The notes: generated from the letters alone by a model not told the origin. 64,000 nt of DNA from a plasmid (GCF_053078305.1 NZ_CP166875.1), one strand, 5' to 3'; positions 4,965 to 50,385 are shown, counted from the first letter of the stretch. A program made the numbers and translations.

Positions 4965-7900
4965 ATGAAGTCCAGATATCGTACCTGGCTTGCTGTCCCG
5001 CCTGAGGAGACAGAAGCCGTAAAAAATGCAGTCCCCCCGTTAAATGGCCGCAAAGCTGTCGCATGGGATCCAGAAAAAAAACTCTGGTATGCCCGGGCGG
5101 GTACCGAACTTTCACTGCTGGAGCGCTGGTTACCCCGGCCGCAGGAACTGTCGATGGATGCCGGCGATCCGGTCACCGAATTTGCTCAGGTCCTGGAAAA
5201 CGCCGGACTGGTTATTCAGGGATTGCCACAGATGGATGGCGCCATACACAGAGTCGCCACCCGGGATGACAAAAAAGGGGCCAAAAGTGGCGCATACAAG
5301 GCCTATCTTGATGGGCGCCCCGCCGGCTGGTACCGCGACTACCGGAGCGCCGATGACAGTCCCACAAACTGGGTATTTTCCGGCGGAGAACAACACGATC
5401 CTCTGGCCAGACTGCATCTGCGGGCATTCGCTCAGCAACAGCGCGATGATAACGCACGTAAACTGCAGCAACAGTACAACAAACAGGCCCGGTATGCCCG
5501 CTCCTATATTAACCAGTTACCACAGGCAACAGAGCATGAATACCTGACCCGAAAAGGGATCCTTGCCGCACCGGGCGTCCGTCTGAATAACAAGAATGAA
5601 CTCGTCATCCCTTTCAGTAACAGCCGGGGAGAAATACGTTCATACCAGCGTATTCCTGTCACCGGCGGGAAGGATGCCCGCATTCTGAAAGACTCAGAGA
5701 AAACCGGTAACTGGTTCACCTTCGGAACCCCGGAAAATGGCCGTCCCCTGTTATTTGCGGAAGGTTACGCAACTGCAGCCTCCCTGCACGAAGCCACCGG
5801 CCTTCCGGTTCTGATGACAGTTGATGCCGGCAATATGATTGACGTGGCAGAAAATGCCCGCCAAATCTGGACTGACAGCCCCTTTGTCTTCTGTGCCGAC
5901 AACGACCATCAACGGAAAATTAACAAAGGTGTTTCAAGTGCCCAAAAAGCTGCCGCAAGCACGCATGGCGAAGTCATTATTCCGGCCTTTACGGAGGCGG
6001 AAAAAGCACAGGGACTGACCGATTTCAATGACCTGGACGCCAGCAGGGGACGAGACGCCTTTCAGCGAGCCATGAACGCACAGTTAGAATATATCGGTAT
6101 CCCCACGCCCAACAATGACACTACTGACCGCCGTGAAGCTATCGTGATCGGCAACCTGATATTCACACCGGTAAAAGATGAGAAGCCACAAGTGTACCCT
6201 GAAAACAGACAGAGCACAGCCCCTGAACCGGCAGTGTCGGAACAGAATCATCCTTATGACATCCCTGCAGAAGAGACAGACAATCAGGCATATGAAGATG
6301 ACTATGCAGCATATGCATCCCTGCAGTCGGTAACTGCAGGGACAGCCTCCCCGAATGAACCGCAGGTGAATGCTGTTTCTGCCATTGACAGCAACGCAAA
6401 GAATACCTCTGCCGCCACCACTGACGACCGAAATGTATTAGCACAAGAACCCAATGCTGACGCCACAGTTACGACCACGGCTCACGACACCGGCACAGCA
6501 GAAACAGATTCACCTTCTGAACCTGCAGAGATTCAGCCAGTGCAGCAGGCCAGTCCTGAACCATCGGCTAAAGATAAACCACAGGAGAACGTAGTGTCTG
6601 CTACTGATAATGACGCAGAGAACACCTCTTCCGCCACCACTGCCCTCCGGAGTTACGACACACCGGAAACATCCGTCTCCGACGCAACCGGGACACAGCA
6701 CACCGCCACAACGCAACCTGAAGAACCACAGCAGGTCTCCATGGGCAGCGCTGACGACTGGAGCGCATTTGCGGAAGACCTCAATGCTGATGCTCCGGGG
6801 AATGCCACTGTTCACAGCACCGACAACGCGGAGACAAAGACACTTTCTGAACCTGCCGGGATGCAGCCTGTTCAACAGGCAACCCCTGAACCAACGGAAG
6901 AAAATAAACCTCAGGAAGAGGGCGTTATGTCTGCCACTGATACAGGTGAAGAGAGTGCCGCTGCCGCTATCGATGACGACCTGGACACAGTTGCGGAAGA
7001 CCTCAATGCTGATGTTACTGTGATGACCACAGCTCACCACACCGATACAGCAGAAACAGCCTCACCTTCTGAACCTGCAGAAATTCAGCCCGTACAGCAG
7101 GCAACCCCTGAACCAACGGCAGAAGATAAACCGAAGGAAGAGCGTCCAGTGTCTGCCACTGAGACCAGCACAGCGAATGAAACAGCCCGCCCTGAAACAG
7201 CATCGCTTTTCAGCCGCCTGCGCCGTTTTCTGACCGGTGGAAAATCACGTACCGCCGAACCTCCCGTTATTCAGGAGAACAAGCTTACGGAGGCCGAAAC
7301 TGCGACAGAGGCCGCAGCACCACCGTCACCACCTGAAACCAGCCCGGAAGACACATCGTCAGCAGAACCGGACACGATTATCTTTGCGCCCCGCCGGCCC
7401 AACAGTCCGCAGCGGCACAACCTGGACGAGATTATTAAAAATCTTACATACGATGAGTTACCCGACAATACTGCGCTCTGCCGCGTCGACGGCGAACCGG
7501 CATTCCTGGATAAACTCAACCGTCTGGAAATGGTGGATGGTGCCAGCACTGATGACAAAAAGGTCCTGGCTGCCCTTGCTGTGGCCACCAACTTCTATGG
7601 CGGCGTTATCGAGCTGACCGGCAGTGATGCCTTTAAACAAAAAGCCATGCAGCTGATTGTCGAATATGACATCAAGGTTCGCATGAAACTCCCGGTCCAG
7701 AGGGCTGCGCTGGAAAAACTCCGCCAGGAGAAAGGGATGGCGCATGATGCCATCGTCACCCACAGACCCACGCCGGAACTCAACCGCCTGTCACCGGAAG
7801 AGACAACAATGGCACAACCGGCCCCCCCTGTGTCACCGAAAGCAGAAACAGAGCAAACTGCAGGCAGTACGGCTGAAACACCGCATCCGGAAGCGCCGGT

Positions 7901-8981
7901 CACGGCAAAAGCTGAAGCCCCCCGGGCCGGCACACCGGAACAACCAGCCGCCCCGTCATCGTCAGCAGGAAACGTCGCTGTCAGTGCACAGCCACAGCAA
8001 CCCGACACACCGGAGGAAGAGCCCCCCGGCAAACTCAGACCCGGTGAAAGTGTGACTGCCGTCCTGACAAACTACGGAGAAAAAGAGTATGCGCCCGGAA
8101 AAGGGCGCTGCTTTTTTGTGGAGCTCACCAACCGCAGTGGCAAACGGGAATACTGGGGAAACGGCCTGGAAGAACTGGTCAAAAACCACCAGAAAGGCAA
8201 CCCCGTCACACTGACGCTGCAGGCGAGAGAAACATTCCGGCTGTCCGGTGAAACACGGGATCGTATCCGTAATATCTGGGCCATGACTCCTGTCAGTAAC
8301 GGCATTACCGTCGATAATGACCATCCTCATGCTGGTCAGCATATCCTGGATTTTCCGATGGCAACATTCAGCCAGGTGATGTTACAGATGCAACAACACT
8401 GGCCACAGATAATGCAGGAAGTTCGCTCCCCCAAAAATCCTCCCAATAATCTGTACATTGGTGAAGACAGGCAACCTGCATCAGCACCTCAGGATCAATC
8501 AATGCGACTCCCCCTCGCTGGTAATGCCCCCAATGAACTGATACCAGCCATCGCCTCTGCCGATAAGGACAATCGTCAGTTGAATCTTCTGCTGGTCCAC
8601 AGCGCAGATGATCATCTGCAGGGCGTGGTCCGCCTGAACGGCACCCTTTACCCGGCACTGGCCACCCCGTCAGCTGACAACCGTCAGCTGGTCATCAATG
8701 CCCTGACGGATAACGGTCTGCAGTTTGCCGGTTACGGTGAAGCTGTTAACCATGATGAGAATAATCATCAGCGTCCGTCCCCACAAATAATGCAGTTTCA
8801 CCTGAAGCAACAGGACTCCCCGTTGTTTGCCGCCATCCACAAACCGGAAGAGCAACCGGACAAGCTTTTCCGCTCTCTGGGTTTTGAGCAGACCTGGAAA
8901 GAGTGGTCTGACAGCCAAAAGGCGGAGGACAGGCAGGAAAAAACTCTGCAACAGGCACAATCCCACAGCCCCGGCCGATGA
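4965..8981 (+). CDS. Sog-like conjugative DNA primase, multidomain (1338 aa)
   Basis: Toprim-like motifs (FAEGYATAAS ... FVFCADNDHQ) in the N-terminal third; SD GGAGA before ATG; central acidic repetitive region; located between traK-like and traL-like genes as sog is in IncI1. Confidence 0.65.
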   Translation: MKSRYRTWLAVPPEETEAVKNAVPPLNGRKAVAWDPEKKLWYARAGTELSLLERWLPRPQELSMDAGDPVTEFAQVLENAGLVIQGLPQMDGAIHRVATRDDKKGAKSGAYKAYLDGRPAGWYRDYRSADDSPTNWVFSGGEQHDPLARLHLRAFAQQQRDDNARKLQQQYNKQARYARSYINQLPQATEHEYLTRKGILAAPGVRLNNKNELVIPFSNSRGEIRSYQRIPVTGGKDARILKDSEKTGNWFTFGTPENGRPLLFAEGYATAASLHEATGLPVLMTVDAGNMIDVAENARQIWTDSPFVFCADNDHQRKINKGVSSAQKAAASTHGEVIIPAFTEAEKAQGLTDFNDLDASRGRDAFQRAMNAQLEYIGIPTPNNDTTDRREAIVIGNLIFTPVKDEKPQVYPENRQSTAPEPAVSEQNHPYDIPAEETDNQAYEDDYAAYASLQSVTAGTASPNEPQVNAVSAIDSNAKNTSAATTDDRNVLAQEPNADATVTTTAHDTGTAETDSPSEPAEIQPVQQASPEPSAKDKPQENVVSATDNDAENTSSATTALRSYDTPETSVSDATGTQHTATTQPEEPQQVSMGSADDWSAFAEDLNADAPGNATVHSTDNAETKTLSEPAGMQPVQQATPEPTEENKPQEEGVMSATDTGEESAAAAIDDDLDTVAEDLNADVTVMTTAHHTDTAETASPSEPAEIQPVQQATPEPTAEDKPKEERPVSATETSTANETARPETASLFSRLRRFLTGGKSRTAEPPVIQENKLTEAETATEAAAPPSPPETSPEDTSSAEPDTIIFAPRRPNSPQRHNLDEIIKNLTYDELPDNTALCRVDGEPAFLDKLNRLEMVDGASTDDKKVLAALAVATNFYGGVIELTGSDAFKQKAMQLIVEYDIKVRMKLPVQRAALEKLRQEKGMAHDAIVTHRPTPELNRLSPEETTMAQPAPPVSPKAETEQTAGSTAETPHPEAPVTAKAEAPRAGTPEQPAAPSSSAGNVAVSAQPQQPDTPEEEPPGKLRPGESVTAVLTNYGEKEYAPGKGRCFFVELTNRSGKREYWGNGLEELVKNHQKGNPVTLTLQARETFRLSGETRDRIRNIWAMTPVSNGITVDNDHPHAGQHILDFPMATFSQVMLQMQQHWPQIMQEVRSPKNPPNNLYIGEDRQPASAPQDQSMRLPLAGNAPNELIPAIASADKDNRQLNLLLVHSADDHLQGVVRLNGTLYPALATPSADNRQLVINALTDNGLQFAGYGEAVNHDENNHQRPSPQIMQFHLKQQDSPLFAAIHKPEEQPDKLFRSLGFEQTWKEWSDSQKAEDRQEKTLQQAQSHSPGR
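6440..7170 (+). repeat. three imperfect tandem coding repeats inside the primase gene
   Basis: Repeated blocks LNAD...AET..PSEPAEIQPVQQA(T/S)PEPT..(D/N)KPQEE..VSATD beginning near 6445, 6781 and 7002; nucleotide copies about 85-95% identical. Confidence 0.7.
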
Positions 8982-8997
8982 GCCGGTAAGGACGACC

Positions 8998-9348
8998 ATG
9001 AACATGAAAAAAACGCTGCTGGTCATACTGACCGGCATCACCCTGGCATCACCGGTGGCAGGTGCCGCCACCTGCCGGGCGGGGGCCGCTGCCGAAGCCG
9101 GCAGCAAAGCAGCCTGGGAGCGGGCGCGCACAGCCAGCCAGGCATGGTCACAGCGAGAAAACGACGTCGCCTCCTCCCTGCAGTCCTGCCTGTCCCGCAT
9201 TAAGGACGTCAGCATCACTCTTCCGCAATTCCCCAGTCTGGACAAAATCCTTCGCGATCTGGAAAACCAGGTCTGTGATGCCGTCGTGGATCGGGTGAAT
9301 GAACATCTGCCGGGGAATATCGACCCCTGGAAAGACTATAACCTCTGA
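8998..9348 (+). CDS. small secreted protein (TraL-like)
   Basis: ATG 8998 after AAGGA; signal peptide MNMKKTLLVILTGITLASPVAGAA; 116 aa. Confidence 0.4.
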   Translation: MNMKKTLLVILTGITLASPVAGAATCRAGAAAEAGSKAAWERARTASQAWSQRENDVASSLQSCLSRIKDVSITLPQFPSLDKILRDLENQVCDAVVDRVNEHLPGNIDPWKDYNL

Positions 9349-9359
9349 ACAGGAGCCCC

Positions 9360-10055
9360 ATGAGCGAAGCACACCCCACATCCCCTGTCTCTCCGGAAAC
9401 AGATAACAGCGGAGATATTTATAAACAAACGCTCAGTACCATTGCACAGTCAGAACAACGGGCCGCACTGGTTCCCGGACTTGTCAGGGCCTTGCTGTGT
9501 AGCAGCGCAGCTCTCGTCATCAGTCTGACCGGCAATATCATACAGTACTGGCATAACAGCAACGTAACGCGTGAATACTTTGCCACCGACAATGGCCGGC
9601 TGGTCCGCCTGGCCCCCACCAGTCAGCCAGCCTGGAGTCAGAGCGACGTCATGACGTTTGGCAGCATGACGCTGAGCGAAGCTTTTAATCTGGATTTTGT
9701 CCACTACAGGAAACAAATCACGACACTGGCCCCCCGCTTTTCCGAAGCCGGTTTTGCCGGCTATGTGAATGCTCTTCAGGCCTCCAACATTCTGGACACC
9801 ATTAAAAAGGAGAAATTTAACCTCACGGCCACCATCGGGGCCGGCACGCTGGTGAATCAGGGCCAGATGGAAAACGGCATCTGGTTCTGGAAATTCCAGT
9901 ATCCGGTCAGGATGCGTCTGGTCGGTCAGAGCAGCACCCGCCCCGAGCAGGCCTTCACCTTTGAAATCACTGTCCGGCGCGTTGACCCACGAATCAAACC
10001 CGGCGGCATGGAAATCAGCCAGATGGTTTCCCGTAACGCCGCATCAGGAACCTGA
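9360..10055 (+). CDS. T4SS inner-membrane protein, IcmL/DotI family (TraM-like)
   Basis: SD AGGAG before ATG; single N-terminal TM segment then periplasmic domain; size and order match. Confidence 0.5.
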   Translation: MSEAHPTSPVSPETDNSGDIYKQTLSTIAQSEQRAALVPGLVRALLCSSAALVISLTGNIIQYWHNSNVTREYFATDNGRLVRLAPTSQPAWSQSDVMTFGSMTLSEAFNLDFVHYRKQITTLAPRFSEAGFAGYVNALQASNILDTIKKEKFNLTATIGAGTLVNQGQMENGIWFWKFQYPVRMRLVGQSSTRPEQAFTFEITVRRVDPRIKPGGMEISQMVSRNAASGT

Positions 10056-10065
10056 GACTCATATC

Positions 10066-11040
10066 ATGCAAATACATCATCTTCTTGGCGCACTGCTTAT
10101 TGTGTGCGGCACTGTCACGGCTGCAGATAACCCGAGCTGGCAGAACGCACGAACCCCACAGGCTGGCGGAAAGACAGGACAGGCTCCCGGGAACGCCCCC
10201 GCAGGCGGCCCCCCGCCTGCCACACAACTCACAGGCCCCCTGCCGCCACCTGCCTCTCCCCTTGTTCAGGAAGCCGCATCACTGGATTCCCCCCTGAATG
10301 CAGGTGAAATTCGGGAACTGCGGGGACGAATGGCCGATAACGAACGGGCCATCAGCGCACCTGTCACCAGTGTGGTGCCCCGTATCAGCTCCCTCACAGT
10401 AAATCTGTCACCCGGGGCCAGTCTGCCGCTTGTCCGAACCGCACTGCATAACGTCAGCGTGGTAACGTTCACGGACATCAACGGCTCCCCGTGGCCTCAG
10501 TCGGATCCGCCTTATAACGCGGCACCCGGTCACTTTGATGTGCAGTTCAACGGCAATATGGTCTCCGTCACTCCCCTGCGCGCCTGGGCTGCAGGGAATG
10601 TAACGGTCTACCTCAAAGGACTGTCTGTACCGGTCATTCTGAATATCACCAGTGGTGAAACCGACACCAATACCCTGAGTCAGGAGATCGACAGCCGTCT
10701 GGATCTGCGCATTCCCCGTCAGGGACCTGTCAGTCCTGTGGTAGCCGTACCATCAGAGAAGATTGCCCTGCATGATGCCACCCTGCAGGCCTTTCTGGAC
10801 GGTGTTCCTCCCGATGATCCCACCGTGCGTCGGCTGAAATTCTCCGGAAATGTTCCGGACACCACCATCTGGCAGCACGGCGATGATCTGCTCGTGCGAT
10901 CGCGGGCCATGCTGCGGGATGAATTTGAACAGACGCTGGCATCTGCTGACGGTACGCGTCTGTGGAAACTGCCGGTGACTCCCTTACTCACCTTCTCCGT
11001 GAATGGTCAGTCCATTCACGTCACCCCTGAACTGGAGTAA
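10066..11040 (+). CDS. T4SS core protein with Pro-rich linker (TraN-like, DotH/IcmK-like)
   Basis: Signal peptide MQIHHLLGALLIVCGTVTA; proline-rich segment; follows the IcmL-like gene. Confidence 0.45.
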   Translation: MQIHHLLGALLIVCGTVTAADNPSWQNARTPQAGGKTGQAPGNAPAGGPPPATQLTGPLPPPASPLVQEAASLDSPLNAGEIRELRGRMADNERAISAPVTSVVPRISSLTVNLSPGASLPLVRTALHNVSVVTFTDINGSPWPQSDPPYNAAPGHFDVQFNGNMVSVTPLRAWAAGNVTVYLKGLSVPVILNITSGETDTNTLSQEIDSRLDLRIPRQGPVSPVVAVPSEKIALHDATLQAFLDGVPPDDPTVRRLKFSGNVPDTTIWQHGDDLLVRSRAMLRDEFEQTLASADGTRLWKLPVTPLLTFSVNGQSIHVTPELE

Positions 11041-30045: not shown

Positions 30046-30385
30046 TTATTTGCTGATATGAAGAAAAAAACCATTTCAAAGAAAATAAATGGCAAAAATA
30101 CAGCATGGAAAAAAATTGCCATTTTTACCGCCGCGTTATTTTTAATATTTGCTGTCTGCTGGTCGTAATAAGCAGAATAACAGAAAGGTGTAAAAATGAA
30201 CCTGGTTGATGCATTTGTCACTAAAGTGATATCCGGACCGTATGAAGAATACGGAAAATGGTGGGTGGATGTAGAATATATTTCCTGGGGAGTTCCGGGT
30301 AAAAGCCGGCTCATGTTTGACTCACGGGAACAGGCACAGGAAGTGCAGGAAGGTTTTCGATTTTTAACCTGAGCATATTTTGTTA

Positions 30386-30415
30386 AAGGGCAGAAGGCGG
30401 TGACCCTCTGCCCTT
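30386..30415. terminator. hairpin after toxin copy 1 (bidirectional)
   Basis: Perfect 9-bp inverted repeat AAGGGCAGA ... TCTGCCCTT. Confidence 0.4.
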
Positions 30416-30434
30416 AAGTACGTTTCCGGGATTA

Positions 30435-30530
30435 TCAGTCAACCAGTTCCCGGATCAGTTCCAGGAGAGCTATCACTGCGTTAGCCACAGCAACAACCGC
30501 CCTGAGAACGATGATTAACAGGTTAATCAT
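30435..30530 (-). CDS. DinQ/TisB-like small hydrophobic toxin peptide, copy 1 (31 aa)
   Basis: Encodes MINLLIIVLRAVVAVANAVIALLELIRELVD; GGAG 8 nt before ATG; the IALLELIR core matches DinQ as I recall it. Confidence 0.4.
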   Translation of the reverse strand: MINLLIIVLRAVVAVANAVIALLELIRELVD

Positions 30531-30845
30531 CCGCTTCTCCATCAATGGAGAAAGAACACCGTGGTTTGCCCTTACATTGCCTGTCGCCACGTTTTCTATA
30601 GTGTCAGTTATAGACAGTTCTTCTCCGGCCAGAGCACCAAAACCAGCACCACCTGATGTTTTGGCCAGGACTTGCAACCTGTTCATCCCGGTGAACGATA
30701 TGCCGGAAAGAACGTGCCTCAAAGCTGACACACCGAGTATATACTTATACTGTGCTTGCAGAAATATTATTTCAGCCGTATTATTTCATAGTCAGTTATA
30801 GGCAGTTATCTTCCGGTCAGGGCTACCAACTTCGATCCGGAATCG

Positions 30846-30876: not shown

Positions 30877-31077
30877 TGCGTCTGTACCTCCTCCCCGGAC
30901 AGCAGTTCTCTCACTCCCGTTGAATATTTCCTGTTGAATTTTACGAAAATACGGCAAATGGGAGATATCGAATATATTTCCTTGGGTGTAGTCGGTAAAA
31001 ACCAGCTCATGTTTGACTCACAGAAACAGGCTCTGGAAGTACAGAAAGTAATCTGTCCGTAGATTATTAAAGGGCAG

Positions 31078-31107
31078 AGGGCGGTGACCCTCTGCCCTTA
31101 AGTACGT
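31078..31107. terminator. hairpin after toxin copy 2
   Basis: Same 9-bp inverted repeat as at 30386. Confidence 0.4.
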
Positions 31108-31118
31108 TTCCGGGATTA

Positions 31119-31214
31119 TCAGTCAACCAGTTCCCGGATCAGTTCCAGGAGAGCTATCACTGCGTTAGCCACAGCAACAACCGCCCTGAGAACGATGATT
31201 AACAGGTTAATCAT
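31119..31214 (-). CDS. DinQ/TisB-like small hydrophobic toxin peptide, copy 2
   Basis: Identical 31-aa peptide and GGAG site to copy 1. Confidence 0.4.
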   Translation of the reverse strand: MINLLIIVLRAVVAVANAVIALLELIRELVD

Positions 31215-31575
31215 CCGTTTCTCCATCAATGGAGGAAATCACTGTTGTTTACTCTTACATTGCCTGTCACAACAGCTCTTTCATTGTTAGCTGAAAAGAG
31301 ACTTCCTCCGGCCAGAGCACCAGACGCAGCACCACCTGTTTGTCCGGCCAGGTCTTTGAATAGCACAGATCCATAGTCCCGATGGATTGATGCGAAGGTA
31401 AGTCTCCAGACAAGGCTAACTTGCTGATTATACTTGTTTCAGGCGATATCGCTACTCCCGGAACAATAGACTGTAACGAACAGATTGCGATCAGGTGAAT
31501 ATAACGATATTCTGGTAACGTTAGTTGAAAAGAGACTTCCCCCGGGCCAGAGCCACCCACTCTCCCTGGGATCGC

Positions 31576-31750: not shown

Positions 31751-33067
31751 GTGTCTTACCAACACTCCCCCACAACAGAAGACCCGATGAACATATGGTA
31801 TATCGTTGGCACCATATGTCTGCTCTTTGCGCTTCTCATCTGGCTCTTTTTACCCGACATCGTCTTTGCCACCTGCCTGATCCTGCACACAATGTGGGGG
31901 ATGACTGACTGGGGGCCTTTTCACCATTTTGCCGCCCCCCGTTACAACCTGCTGGCCATCACTGCTAACAACGCGGCAACCATCACTTTCGGCCAGTGGC
32001 TGGATGTTATGTCCCGGACAGTGGGGATCCTCTGGTTGATTCTGCTTCCCATGACATTCGGCTTTCTGTGGATGTGGTTTCACCATCCGGCCCAGCCCCG
32101 TTTTACCCGCAGGCCACTGAATATCCACACACTGCCCCATATTTTTTCAGCTCTGTCACCGGCGATCGCCCCCGTTCTGGCTGATGGAGACAACAACAGA
32201 CTCTTCCACGGACAAAAACGTCCCGAGCGCCGTGTCGCACTAACCCCCGAAGTCTTTGTGGAGCAGAACAACCTTATCCGCAACATGCAGCTCGATGTTG
32301 CGTCCACACGCCAGTGCTTCATGGCGCAACTGGGGCAACCACTGACCAGCTGGAAAGACATGGCCCCACATGAAAAAGCGCTCTTTGCCATCTTTGGCCT
32401 GCAGTTCTTCCTCGGTGACCGGAAAGCAGCGGTAGCCCTGATGAACAACCTCAATCTCTCCTGCAGGCTCAAAAGTAAACGGGACCAGGGGCGTTTCAGC
32501 ACGCCGGTGTATTCACTGGCCAGAAACGCCTTTATCCGGGTCATCAAAACAGAAGGCGCACAACAGTGGCTCAGGCAGCACCGTTACGTTCGCAGCGGTC
32601 TGGTCTGGCTTTACGCACATGATTTGCGCCTGACGCCTCCGAACTGGCTGTGGCTCAAGGGCGTTGACCGGACGCTCTTCTATGCCCTTCACCGGGCAAA
32701 CACCACAAAAGGCTTCATCGAAGGGGCCGGCGTGGTGGCCGTTGCCCGGGCAGAAAATGAAGCCAGCCGTCTCGGCCTCCCCTGCCCGGAACCCTGTGTG
32801 GAAGAGGCCATTGAAGGGCTTCGACGGGACATGCTGGGGCTGGGCCTGATATGGGACGAACCTCAGCCAGATCGCGATCGTAAACGTCAGATCAGGACCC
32901 GCTGGTCACTCACGGATGACGTGATACCCCGCCGCCATGATAACGACGAAGACACTGACACTGGTGAAACCACCGAAACCACCGAAACCACCGAAACCAC
33001 CGAAACCACCGAAACCACCGAAACCACCGAAAAACAGCATCCCGCCGACAAGGAAAAAGAACAATGA
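31751..33067 (+). CDS. T4SS inner-membrane protein, DotM/IcmP-like (TrbA-like)
   Basis: GTG start after GGAGG; N-terminal TM helices; C-terminal ETT tandem repeat; precedes the trbB/trbC-like genes. Confidence 0.5.
   Translation: MSYQHSPTTEDPMNIWYIVGTICLLFALLIWLFLPDIVFATCLILHTMWGMTDWGPFHHFAAPRYNLLAITANNAATITFGQWLDVMSRTVGILWLILLPMTFGFLWMWFHHPAQPRFTRRPLNIHTLPHIFSALSPAIAPVLADGDNNRLFHGQKRPERRVALTPEVFVEQNNLIRNMQLDVASTRQCFMAQLGQPLTSWKDMAPHEKALFAIFGLQFFLGDRKAAVALMNNLNLSCRLKSKRDQGRFSTPVYSLARNAFIRVIKTEGAQQWLRQHRYVRSGLVWLYAHDLRLTPPNWLWLKGVDRTLFYALHRANTTKGFIEGAGVVAVARAENEASRLGLPCPEPCVEEAIEGLRRDMLGLGLIWDEPQPDRDRKRQIRTRWSLTDDVIPRRHDNDEDTDTGETTETTETTETTETTETTETTEKQHPADKEKEQ
32966..33028 (+). repeat. in-frame tandem 9-bp repeat (gaaaccacc, 6-7 copies)
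   Basis: Perfect tandem units encoding (ETT)n at the TrbA-like C-terminus. Confidence 0.85.
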
Positions 33068-34188
33068 CCATCCACTACACTGCAACACTGAATAATAAAC
33101 ACCTGTCCCTGACCGCCCTGTACCCTGACGGTAATCGGGAGGTGATTGCCATCCTGCCGGTAACAGAACTGGGCGCACTGATTAACCGTAATAACAGGCT
33201 GATGCACCTGTCCTTCAGTTCCCCTTTTCGCGAAATAACCGAAACGGTGCTTGTTGATACCGTTGATGCAGAACGTCCCGGACATCACATCGGCAGAATG
33301 CTCTCAGCGATTGATGCCTGCCTGGATGCCGAATATGCCGGAAAAGGAAAACATCCCTCCCGGAAATATGGCTTCTGGCGGACACTGATGTGTGGCTTTA
33401 TCGCCGGAATTGCTCTGCCGGCGACAGTTGCAGGTTACCACTGGATGAAGGCAGAGCCCCCTTCCACGCTGGCTTACCCTAAATCTCAGGAATGGAGAGC
33501 TGAACCAGTAACCGACACAGAGACACCACGCCCACATACGGAACATCATGTTAACAGCATCCCGGCCCGCCCGGCTCCCACACAGCAGGAACCTTCTTCT
33601 GCCCCCGCCCCGACGGCAGTGACGGAAGAACAACACGTTCAGGCCGCTGAGGCCCGCCGTAATCTGGCCACAGTACTTAAACGCAACGCAGACCGGGGGA
33701 TGTTCACCATTAACCTGTCCACTGGTCATGAACGCACGCTGTACGCCTTCCTTGACCCCGCATGCATCAACTGCCGTCTGCTGGAACCCGCGCTTAAGCA
33801 ACTGGCCCGGGAATTCAGCGTGGTGATTTATCCGGTCTCCGTGATTGGCGGGGAGTCCAGTACAAAGCGGACTGCTCCGCTGCTGTGTGAACCGGACTCA
33901 CAAAAACGGGCGACCGGATGGCATCAGCTGTATTCCGCTGACAGTGGTATGGCCCCCACCGGCGATGCACCGGCCGCACAGGATGGACAGTGTCTGACCG
34001 CCGCACGTGCTGCCATCGATGTCAATAACCAGGCTTTCCGCCAGTTCGGTTTTGGCGGAACCCCCTGGGTGTTATCAGATACCGGCTGGCACCTGCCGTC
34101 CGGCATCCTGAAAGACGCCACTTCCGTTCGCCTCTTCCTGAAAGCAACAGATAGCGAGGAGTATCACAATGAGCCAGCACCACGTTAA
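33064..34188 (+). CDS. thioredoxin-fold protein with CxxC motif (TrbB-like)
   Basis: ATGA coupling; CINC motif in LDPACINCRLL; hydrophobic N-terminal segment. Confidence 0.45.
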   Translation: MTIHYTATLNNKHLSLTALYPDGNREVIAILPVTELGALINRNNRLMHLSFSSPFREITETVLVDTVDAERPGHHIGRMLSAIDACLDAEYAGKGKHPSRKYGFWRTLMCGFIAGIALPATVAGYHWMKAEPPSTLAYPKSQEWRAEPVTDTETPRPHTEHHVNSIPARPAPTQQEPSSAPAPTAVTEEQHVQAAEARRNLATVLKRNADRGMFTINLSTGHERTLYAFLDPACINCRLLEPALKQLAREFSVVIYPVSVIGGESSTKRTAPLLCEPDSQKRATGWHQLYSADSGMAPTGDAPAAQDGQCLTAARAAIDVNNQAFRQFGFGGTPWVLSDTGWHLPSGILKDATSVRLFLKATDSEEYHNEPAPR

Positions 34189-36469
34189 TCCTGACCTCAT
34201 ACACCGCACGGCCTGGGGAAACCCGCTGTGGAATGCACTGCATAACCTGAACATCATTGGTCTGTGTCTGGCCGGCAGTATCATTACGGCCCTGATATGG
34301 CCACTGGCCCTTCCTGTCTGTCTGCTGTTCACCCTGGTCACCTCCGTGATATTCACGCTGCAACGCTGGCGATGCCCCCTGCGTATGCCCATGACGCTCA
34401 GCCTTGATGACCCCTCCCAGGACAGAAAGGTCAGGCGAAGCCTCTTCAGCTTCTGGCCCACCCTGTTTCAGTATGAAGCAGATGAAACATCCCCCGCACG
34501 GGGGATTTTTTATGTCGGTTACCGCCGTATCAATGATATCGGTCGTGAGCTCTGGCTGAGCATGGATGACCTCACCCGGCATGTCATGTTTTTTGCCACC
34601 ACCGGTGGCGGTAAAACAGAAACCACCTTTGCCTGGCTGCTCAACCCGCTCTGCTGGGGAAGAGGCTTTACCTTTGTTGACGGAAAGGCACAGAACGATA
34701 CCACGAGGACAATCTGGTATCTCTCCCGACGTTTTGGCAGGGAGGATGATATCGAGGTCATCAACTTCATGAACGGCGGAAAATCCCGCAGCGAAATCAT
34801 TCAGAGTGGCGATAAATCCCGCCCACAGTCAAACACCTGGAACCCGTTCGCATTCAGCACCGAAGCCTTCACCGCCGAAACCATGCAGTCCATGCTGCCC
34901 CAGAACGTTCAGGGCGGTGAATGGCAGTCACGGGCGATAGCCATGAACAAGGCACTGGTCTTTGGCACAAAATTCTGGTGCGTCCGGGAAGGTAAAACCA
35001 TGTCCCTGCAGATGTTACGGGAACATATGACGCTGGAAGGGATGGCAAAACTCTATTGCCGTGGCCTTGATGACCAGTGGCCGGAAGAAGCCATCGCACC
35101 ACTGCGAAACTACCTGCAGGATGTCCCGGGATTCGATATGTCACTGGTGAGAACGCCGTCAGCCTGGACTGAGGAGCCCCGTAAACAGCATGCTTATCTC
35201 TCCGGTCAGTTCTCGGAAACGTTCACAACCTTTGCCGAAACCTTCGGGGACGTCTTTGCGGCAGATGCCGGCGACATCGATATTCGCGACAGTATTCACA
35301 GCGACCGCATTCTGATTGTGATGATCCCTGCACTGGACACATCGGCCCATACCACGTCGGCACTCGGTCGTATGTTCGTCACCCAGCAGAGCATGATCCT
35401 CGCCCGTGACCTGGGCTACCGCCTGGAAGGCACAGATGCACAGACCCTGGAAGTCAAAAAATACAAAGGCAGCTTCCCCTATATCTGTATCCTTGACGAA
35501 GTCGGTGCCTACTACACAGACCGCATTGCTGTGGAGGCCACCCAGGTACGTTCACTGGAGTTTTCCCTGATAATGATGGCGCAGGATCAGGAGCGAATTG
35601 AAGGGCAGACCTCCGCCACCAACACCGCCACACTGATGCAGAACGCCGGCACCAAATTCGCCGGACGCATTGTCAGTGACGACAAAACGGCAAGAACGGT
35701 GAAAAATGCCGCCGGTGAAGAGGCACGGGCCAGAATGGGCAGCCTGCAGCGCCACGATGGTGTGATGGGTGAGTCCTGGGTGGACGGTAACCAGATCACC
35801 ATCCAGATGGAAAGCAAAATCGACGTGCAGGATTTGATCAGACTGAATGCCGGTGAGTTCTTTACCGTTTTCCAGGGGGATGTGGTGCCGTCAGCCTCTG
35901 TGTATATTCCGGACAGCGAGAAAAGTTGCGACAGTGATCCGGTGGTCATCAACCGCTATATTTCCGTTGAAGCCCCCCGGCTGGAGCGTCTCCGCCGTCT
36001 CGTCCCCAGGACAGTGCAGCGCAGGCTCCCCACACCGGAGCATGTCAGCAGCATCATCGGTGTACTGACAGCAAAACCATCCCGTAAACGTCGTAAAAAC
36101 CGTACAGAGCCTTACCGTATCATTGATACATTCCAGCGCCGGTTGGCAACAGCGCAGACATCACTGGATCTGCTTCCGCAATATGATACAGATATCGAAT
36201 CCCGGGCAAACGAACTGTGGAAAAAGGCTGTGCACACTATCAATAACACAACCTGGGAAGAACGCCGGGTATGTTATATCACACTGAATCGTCCGGAAGA
36301 GGAACACTCCGGTCCTGAAGATATACCTTCAGTAAAGGCGATTCTGAATACCCTGCTCCCCCTGGAGATACTGTTACCGGTCGCTGAAAATAATAAATCG
36401 CAGACAATAAATAATGATCATCCCCAGAAATCATGTGGAGCACAACCAACAACTGACGAAAAATACTGA
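34169..36469 (+). CDS. trbC: type IV coupling protein, DotL/IcmO (VirD4-like) family (TrbC-like)
   Basis: N-terminal TM helices; Walker A FFATTGGGKTET; 766 aa; SD GAGGAG. Confidence 0.7.
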   Translation: MSQHHVNPDLIHRTAWGNPLWNALHNLNIIGLCLAGSIITALIWPLALPVCLLFTLVTSVIFTLQRWRCPLRMPMTLSLDDPSQDRKVRRSLFSFWPTLFQYEADETSPARGIFYVGYRRINDIGRELWLSMDDLTRHVMFFATTGGGKTETTFAWLLNPLCWGRGFTFVDGKAQNDTTRTIWYLSRRFGREDDIEVINFMNGGKSRSEIIQSGDKSRPQSNTWNPFAFSTEAFTAETMQSMLPQNVQGGEWQSRAIAMNKALVFGTKFWCVREGKTMSLQMLREHMTLEGMAKLYCRGLDDQWPEEAIAPLRNYLQDVPGFDMSLVRTPSAWTEEPRKQHAYLSGQFSETFTTFAETFGDVFAADAGDIDIRDSIHSDRILIVMIPALDTSAHTTSALGRMFVTQQSMILARDLGYRLEGTDAQTLEVKKYKGSFPYICILDEVGAYYTDRIAVEATQVRSLEFSLIMMAQDQERIEGQTSATNTATLMQNAGTKFAGRIVSDDKTARTVKNAAGEEARARMGSLQRHDGVMGESWVDGNQITIQMESKIDVQDLIRLNAGEFFTVFQGDVVPSASVYIPDSEKSCDSDPVVINRYISVEAPRLERLRRLVPRTVQRRLPTPEHVSSIIGVLTAKPSRKRRKNRTEPYRIIDTFQRRLATAQTSLDLLPQYDTDIESRANELWKKAVHTINNTTWEERRVCYITLNRPEEEHSGPEDIPSVKAILNTLLPLEILLPVAENNKSQTINNDHPQKSCGAQPTTDEKY

Positions 36470-42117: not shown

Positions 42118-42324
42118 CTACTGCTCATCAGGAAACAGCTTTTTCAGTTCTTCACCGGAAAGTCCCGTGACCTCCTGAATCCGTTCCGGCGGCCAGCCTA
42201 TATCCCGCAGCCGGCAGGCTATTTCCCGCGCCACTTCAAGAACCCCTTGTTTAAAACCTTCTTTAAAACCTTCTTTAAAACCCTCGTCGAAACCTTTCTG
42301 TATAAGACGTTCTGCAATCGTCAT
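42118..42324 (-). CDS. stand-alone small protein resembling an Rpn C-terminal domain (RpnS-like)
   Basis: SD AGGAG before ATG; resembles the C-terminus of the adjacent Rpn (TIAERL..KG...TGLS.EEL.K); contains KEGF x3 tandem repeat. Confidence 0.45.
   Translation of the reverse strand: MTIAERLIQKGFDEGFKEGFKEGFKQGVLEVAREIACRLRDIGWPPERIQEVTGLSGEELKKLFPDEQ
42249..42287 (-). repeat. 12-bp tandem repeat x3 encoding (GFKE)n
   Basis: ttctttaaaacc repeated three times on the + strand. Confidence 0.8.
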
Positions 42325-50159: not shown

Positions 50160-50385
50160 CTTAACAGAAAAAAAACCAACAAGCACCCACATAAAAAACA
50201 AAAAACCCAAGCAACACCCACACAAACAAAAAAAACACCCAGAAAACACCCAAAGACAAACAACAATAAAGTAATGAAACCCATAAAACACCCAAAAAAA
50301 GACAAAAAAGATTAAATAGCACTTGAACGCCACCAAAAAAATACTATTATGGGTATAGACACCCAAACGACACCCAAAAGAGGAT
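50160..50385 (+). repeat. parC-like centromere: A/C-rich iterons (ACACCCA and variants)
   Basis: At least 8 direct copies of (A)ACACCCA in a C/A-rich tract directly upstream of the ParM-like gene. Confidence 0.45.

Follow-up and report, generated by a model that had tools for sequence, protein, structure and literature searches.

Copy number of an in-frame nine-base repeat varies from 1 to 16 in the acidic C-terminal tail of the conjugation protein TrbA of IncB/O/K/Z plasmids

Introduction

The in-frame coding VNTRs of bacteria (loci of the MLVA type) are tracts with a length divisible by three, situated in low-complexity linkers or tails of proteins, that vary by whole units. The array described below lies in a gene of a conjugation apparatus, trbA, that has been studied in several plasmids of the I-complex. 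Furuya and Komano (1996), quoted by PMC10286972, found that R64 needs trbA for transfer. In the IncB/O/K/Z-type plasmid pMS7163B a trbA::Cm insertion abolishes conjugation and complementation brings transfer back (PMC10286972). Deletion of trbA likewise abolishes transfer of the IncK plasmid pCT, which is called highly conjugative and in which conjugation carries a measurable fitness cost (PMC6868128). The structurally described relative of TrbA is DotM of Legionella, which has a cytoplasmic domain composed of residues 153-380 and binds acidic, Glu-rich C-terminal signal peptides through patches of Arg residues (PMC5802825).

The DNA analysed here, called the window, is a stretch of 64,000 nucleotides of a plasmid (GCF_053078305.1, NZ_CP166875.1). 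Its trbA gene contains an array of perfect nine-base units close to the stop codon. The literature on the repeat sequence, on trbA with tandem repeats, and on IncK or I-complex plasmids was searched and gave no description of this locus. The array is probably a hypermutable in-frame coding VNTR, largely neutral, that is situated in a disordered acidic tail specific to the IncB/O/K/Z lineage.

The array and its reading frame

The array (Table 1) consists of seven perfect, uninterrupted GAAACCACC units, 63 bp in all. TRF, applied to the 64-kb window, extends it to position 33032 (7.4 copies, 100% matches) with a score of 134, the top short-period score across the window. The 18-mer formed by two units has six overlapping matches, all of them inside the array, and the number expected from 100 dinucleotide-preserving shuffles is 0.00. 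The array is far above chance expectation and is correctly placed.

The units are in frame with trbA and are translated into (ETT)7, that is, Glu-Thr-Thr repeated seven times, at residues 406-426 of 438. The tail of the protein reads ...DNDEDTDTG(ETT)7EKQHPADKEKEQ*, where the stretch before the repeat is also represented by WSLTDDVIPRRHDNDEDTDTG, and 12 codons separate the end of the array from the trbA stop. The first-pass annotation had described an in-frame simple-sequence repeat at the C terminus of TrbA, which is confirmed by the reading frame and by the family match of the protein. It had also counted "six to seven" uninterrupted units; the lack of interruptions holds, and the count is exactly seven.

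Table 1. Coordinates of the array, of the genes around it and of an overlapping open reading frame
Feature	Position	Strand	Basis
trbA, 438 aa, DotM/IcmP-like subunit of the I-type (type IVB) coupling complex	31751..33067	+	Pfam DotM_C
Acidic C-terminal tail holding the array, codons 373-438, predicted disordered	32867..33064	+	AlphaFold2
Polymorphic array, (Glu-Thr-Thr)7	32966..33028	+	TRF, shuffles, copy number 1-16 in relatives
Degenerate unit gaaaaacag (EKQ) bordering the array on its 3' side	33029..33037	+	
trbB, DsbC/thioredoxin-like	33064..34188	+	ATG overlaps trbA stop (ATGA)
trbC, DotL-like coupling ATPase, third gene of the trbABC operon	34169..36469	+	NCBIfam and annotation
Spurious antisense ORF with (GGF)n, 90 aa, not a gene	32906..33178	-	ORF list

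trbA and its neighbours

TrbA matches the Pfam family DotM_C (PF23127) over residues 185-358 at 2.4e-47 with 161.8 bits (cut-off 27), and a profile built from TrbA and its homologues matches the Legionella DotM chain 6sz9_B at 3.6e-16. Its score of 68.2 bits against the NCBIfam DotM_IcmP equivalog NF033890 is below the cut-off of 230. Judged by these scores the protein is therefore a homologue of DotM and not an equivalog, and is correctly labelled as a member of the conjugative TrbA branch. The ORF carries the name trbA in plasmid records that are 100% identical to it. Its membership in the coupling complex is marked by position, as trbA adjoins the gene of a DotL-like ATPase in an MPF_I transfer region; this neighbour, trbC, scores 1011 bits against NCBIfam TrbC_conju (cut-off 800). 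The plasmids that match the locus are typed as MPF_I and MOBP with IncK2/Z, IncI1/B/O or IncI-gamma/K1 replicons. The locus belongs to the IncB/O/K/Z branch of the I-complex.

Just upstream of trbA there is a direct duplication of ~400 bp (30241-30655 and 30942-31338, ~83% identity). In matching records the gene found in each copy is named dqlB, for a DinQ-like type I toxin.

The trbABC region is 100% identical to that of pO26-Vir. In a comparison covering positions 1-50116 of the window, the block 16635-42508 is 96.7% identical to this plasmid, the tra genes upstream are 84-91% identical, and the window outside the trb region is 84-97% identical, which rules out that the window is pO26-Vir itself. 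The window comes from a mosaic relative of pO26-Vir, and the pattern of identities indicates recombination between I-complex backbones.

Other tandem repeats are present elsewhere in the window. A 222-bp tandem duplication at 6752-7162 (1.9 copies, 79% matches, TRF score 534) lies, by position, inside a large gene that is annotated as an LPD7 domain-containing protein in pO26-Vir (6136-10197 of that record) and stands where I-type transfer regions have sog. A 12-bp repeat, CCTTCTTTAAAA, at 42245-42296 (3.2 copies, 96% matches) overlaps a small hypothetical minus-strand gene of the pO26-Vir annotation. Degenerate A/C-rich tandem repeats with periods of 31 and 11, for example AAAACACCCAG and GACACCCAAAC, are found at 50168-50378.

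Copy number among related plasmids

A 367-bp query with the array at its centre found 471 plasmids in PLSDB, of which 60 records were sampled in even steps down the ranking. A second, systematic sample, obtained with the same query, was composed of 59 out of 392 E. coli records in RefSeq. Together the samples cover 119 of about 860 records, from two collections that overlap. The locus was found in 380 of 5,426 complete RefSeq E. coli genomes (~7%), where it is nearly always plasmid-borne, and is carried by Shigella plasmids as well.

The matched spans of the 60 PLSDB records deviate from 367 bp solely by multiples of 9, and every length difference in both samples is a multiple of 9 bp, with 1 to 16 copies found overall. 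In the PLSDB sample, the number of units n (with the number of records in parentheses) was 1 (7), 2 (9), 3 (2), 4 (5), 5 (5), 6 (10), 7 (5), 8 (3), 9 (3), 10 (4), 11 (1), 12 (2), 13 (3) and 16 (1). The corresponding numbers for RefSeq E. coli were 1 (7), 2 (12), 3 (4), 4 (8), 5 (6), 6 (5), 7 (4), 8 (5), 9 (2), 10 (1), 11 (1), 12 (1) and 13 (3).

Reading 21 loci base by base showed that every copy number derived from the span was right, that the insertions and deletions fall exactly in the array, and that the flanks are conserved. Arrays of up to 16 perfect units were read directly in relatives. With a query of 2,438 bp from trbA-trbB, the records in which a gap is the sole difference from the window had n = 4, 5, 6, 8, 9 and 11. 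The locus thus has the marks of a coding VNTR: perfect head-to-tail units, and whole-unit insertions and deletions between conserved flanks in close relatives. The earlier suggestion that the array could expand or contract is borne out by these 21 loci, with changes in whole 9-bp steps, and the unit number, when compared across isolates, proved to range from 1 to 16 instead of being fixed.

Assemblers can collapse or expand tandem repeats, and differences in copy number might in principle be artefacts of assembly or sequencing that obscure a fixed real number. There is hardly any likelihood of this here. The arrays are 9-144 bp long, well within an ordinary read, each difference is a whole number of 9-bp steps and the units have no mismatches. 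The plasmids were sequenced to completion in many laboratories and on many platforms, and independent records of related plasmids agree with each other; two plasmids with n = 13, for example, are 108,804 and 108,805 bp long.

Allelic series and speed of change

Four close relatives (L013-L016) are 2-4 substitutions apart over the 8,375 bp outside the array, yet have 6, 5, 9 and 4 units. This corresponds to at least three array events against ~6 substitutions in 8.4 kb. By a very rough calculation a change in the array would be ~10^3-10^4 times as frequent as one at any single nucleotide site, a figure that could be inflated by recombination swapping alleles among plasmid backbones, so that the event count is to be taken as a rough lower bound and not as a measured rate.

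The alleles form two series. In the first, pure GAAACCACC arrays of 1-16 units are followed by gaaaaacag (EKQ). In the second, a single GAAACCACC is followed by GAAACCACT units and the flanking unit reads gaaacccgg (ETR); alleles of 1, 2, 3, 4 and 8 units were found, the longest of which has a single internal GAAATCACT. The unit variants thus differ by lineage, ending in ...ACC in one and in ...ACT in another, showing that expansion occurred independently in the two series.

Among the sampled records, short interrupted alleles look stable within lineages, and all sampled members of a group with 84.7% identity have four units. The greatest variation in these records is found in the pure arrays of the window's own haplotype. 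Variability that is highest in pure arrays is expected if the units slip. Nine-base units are gained and lost whole, and the most plausible mechanism is slipped-strand mispairing when the plasmid is replicated or when DNA is synthesized in conjugation.

Consequences for trbA and trbB

Each unit adds Glu-Thr-Thr and one negative charge to the tail of TrbA, and each slippage event would add or remove precisely this increment. Since the unit is 9 bp long and in frame, no allele shifts the frame of trbA. The frame, the tail downstream of the array and the ATGA overlap with trbB are kept in all 21 of the sequenced alleles. The overlap of the trbA stop with the trbB start lies at a fixed distance downstream of the array, and trbB would therefore never be uncoupled. 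A unit that is a multiple of three, together with this fixed overlap, results in variation of length and not in phase variation. ON/OFF switching is ruled out by the 9-bp unit and by the sequenced alleles, all in frame; a phase-variable contingency locus would be known by a shifted frame or by altered promoter spacing, and neither a frame shift nor a promoter-like site was found at the array.

The array might instead act as nucleic acid, either as a standby or enhancer element of the mRNA for trbB or as a protein-binding array in the DNA, in which case the copy number would alter expression. Its position, 36 nt ahead of the trbB start codon, is suitable for such a role, and most of its A/C-rich sequence is predicted to stay single-stranded in the mRNA (probability of being unpaired 0.45-0.83). 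However, in folding predictions that used 200 nt upstream plus 60 nt of trbB as input, the mean unpaired probability of the trbB initiation region (-18 to +6) was 0.75-0.76 for every n from 0 to 20. This predicted constancy argues against an effect on trbB translation by way of mRNA structure. Furthermore, the array is translated as part of trbA, and trbB begins at an ATGA overlap of the kind typical of translational coupling. Scans for promoters and terminators around the array gave nothing beyond the level of shuffled sequence: no promoter-like site is tied to it, and terminator-like sites around it were no commoner than in the shuffles. A period of 9 bp with 1-16 copies is a poor fit to an array of binding sites with a conserved count: unlike iterons, the units lie inside a constrained coding frame and their number varies 16-fold. 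A role at the level of nucleic acid is accordingly considered very improbable.

Several other ORFs cross the array, namely the antisense ORF of Table 1 with GGF repeats, two more on the minus strand and a plus-strand ORF with (KPP)n. As none of the six frames of the GAAACCACC unit contains a stop codon, open frames through the array arise automatically. The antisense ORF has 90 codons and a start codon, and might on that account be thought the real owner of the repeat. However, a family search with the antisense and alternative-frame ORFs gave no significant match, the best one (E = 0.057, for the antisense ORF) falling short of the cut-off, and the sense frame is strongly backed by homology. 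The substitutions point the same way. In diverged lineages, the 350 bp upstream of the array contain 22 nucleotide differences that cause 6 amino acid changes in the trbA frame, whereas three other frames have 17-19 each. Read in the codon-matched antisense frame, the differences again give 6 changes, but this frame carries 4 stops. The excess of silent substitutions between lineages is restricted to the trbA/trbB frame. The alternative-frame products (GGF, VVS, WFR and KPP repeats) were rejected on these grounds, in line with the first-pass annotation, which had called the GGFGGF ORF an artefact. The chance that the antisense ORF is a real gene is negligible.

The C-terminal tail of TrbA

An AlphaFold2 model calculated from an alignment of 24 homologues has a confident helical N-terminal membrane part and a confident DotM-like domain. 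It has no secondary structure after residue 364, and the pLDDT values are below 50 for residues 373-438 and 26-37 across the array. Alignments of homologues stop near residues 358-385, and the alignment with DotM stops at 358. By homology with DotM, the tail would be cytoplasmic and follow the folded DotM_C domain.

The tails of TrbA homologues have a net negative charge throughout the family. This shared acidity hints at some function of the tail that its length could modulate. In ~35 other enterobacterial TrbA clusters an acidic run is followed by x-(P/L/E)-F at the extreme C terminus, and the combination of an acidic run and a C-terminal Phe is found in almost all homologues outside the IncB/O/K/Z lineage, with endings such as ATDHEF, GDDDSPF, EDDELPF and DDDTLF (clusters P0003-P0041). 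The IncI1 representative (P0003, with 2,539 member sequences) ends in ...DDILPRPPATDHEF. These endings resemble DDDIPF, the C-terminal tip of SSB. The TrbA tail may thus normally be a docking peptide, perhaps an undescribed motif of the coupling complex, which leaves room for a function of the ETT tail. In TrbA of the IncB/O/K/Z plasmids the acidic-Phe end is replaced by ...DTDTG(ETT)nEKQHPADKEKEQ. The ETT array and the ...EKQHPADKEKEQ end are confined to this lineage.

Neutral variation or adjustment of transfer

Of the 471 matching PLSDB plasmids, 464 are typed as conjugative, the typing being a prediction from gene content. The array of pMS7163B, read directly, has five units. The published coordinates of pCT trbA (PMC6868128) span 1,263 bp, which is the length of the 1-unit alleles, and judging from this length pCT most likely carries a single unit. 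Alleles of 1 to 16 units all appear to be compatible with a working transfer system. This indirect evidence suggests that the copy number would have little effect on the frequency of transfer. As such a range of copies occurs in plasmids typed as conjugative, the variation in length is most likely neutral or close to it and would result from the instability of the repeat, without being a regulated device; this reading is drawn solely from the breadth of tolerated alleles.

In a different interpretation, the length and charge of the acidic tail would be set by how many ETT units it contains. The tail would be a tether, or else a pseudo-substrate within the same molecule, occupying the basic surface with which the DotM-like domain binds acidic peptides. 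The copy number would then grade the recruitment of relaxase or primase, and hence the frequency and the cost of conjugation, and the hypermutable array would let plasmid populations explore transfer rates. The binding of acidic Glu-rich C-terminal peptides by the Arg patches of DotM (PMC5802825) gives a precedent for such an interaction. In the alignment, the highly conserved patch residue R314 of DotM corresponds to the invariant R307 of TrbA, the homologue tails are all acidic and each unit adds one further Glu. The fitness cost of pCT conjugation (PMC6868128) suggests that graded transfer could be selectable. However, two of the three DotM binding sites are not conserved in TrbA: R196/R197 belong to an inserted segment of DotM without a TrbA equivalent, and Asp203 takes the position of R217. 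With one site of the three kept (R314), conservation of the acidic-peptide-binding sites as a set was rejected, which makes the pseudo-substrate idea speculative. Moreover, alleles of 1 to 16 units all persist with a broad spread and without a preferred length, and conjugative reference plasmids have both n = 1 (pCT, from its gene length) and n = 5 (pMS7163B). Adjustment of transfer by copy number is therefore considered unlikely, and a pseudo-substrate or tuning role of the acidic tail, suggested by analogy with DotM, is possible but no likelier than that. More doubtful still is a stronger form of the idea, in which the array would be a heritable and rapidly adjustable dial of conjugation. 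The tail would compete with acidic transfer signals for the basic groove at R307, the copy number would grade the loading of the coupling complex, and the dial would have been gained as the IncB/O/K/Z lineage lost its acidic-Phe C terminus.

Uses of the locus

The locus is a cheap and highly discriminating marker, with at least 14 alleles, that could help to follow resistance and virulence plasmids of the IncB/O/K/Z group, which is of epidemiological importance. Recurrent changes of the array will cause homoplasy in typing. The array is also a source of noise in annotation and clustering, as protein lengths vary by up to 45 residues within one gene. In the PLSDB and RefSeq samples, records with up to 9 units are named "trbA: IncI1-type conjugal transfer protein TrbA", and those with 10 or more are named "conjugal transfer protein TrbA", "secretion/conjugation apparatus DotM-related subunit" or "hypothetical protein". 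The tolerance of the TrbA tail to large insertions makes it useful for tagging this little-studied subunit of the coupling complex. Were it true that copy number tunes transfer, which is no more than plausible, the array would represent a new kind of mutable control on the spread of plasmids.

Comparison with known systems

TrbA of IncI1 plasmids (R64-type) is the product of the same gene, in the same position in trbABC, and is likewise needed for transfer. The IncI1 representative is 75% identical to TrbA of the window over 92% of the protein, and differs from it in ending with ...WSLTDDILPRPPATDHEF and in having no ETT repeat. Legionella DotM/IcmP (PDB 6EXA-E and 6SZ9; PMC5802825, PMC7280309) aligns with residues 3-358 of TrbA. 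The two have in common the DotM_C domain, the hydrophobic helices at the N terminus and an adjoining gene for a DotL-like ATPase, and the reported identity between R64 TrbA and DotM is 23% (PMC5802825 / PMC7280309). Nothing in the aligned part of DotM corresponds to the variable ETT tail.

As a DNA element, the array resembles contingency loci, which are likewise hypermutable simple-sequence tracts gaining or losing whole units, but it differs from them in giving variation of length only, with 21 of 21 alleles in frame. The resemblance to coding VNTRs extends further: the units are perfect, arranged head to tail and divisible by three, they are gained and lost whole, the changes are fast compared with point substitutions, and the segment is of low complexity and predicted to be disordered. 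In contrast to the VNTRs of chromosomal surface proteins, the trbA array is situated in the probably cytoplasmic tail of a plasmid conjugation protein, and no role in host interaction or antigenicity is apparent. In-frame VNTRs in disordered segments are well known as a class, and this locus is a further example.
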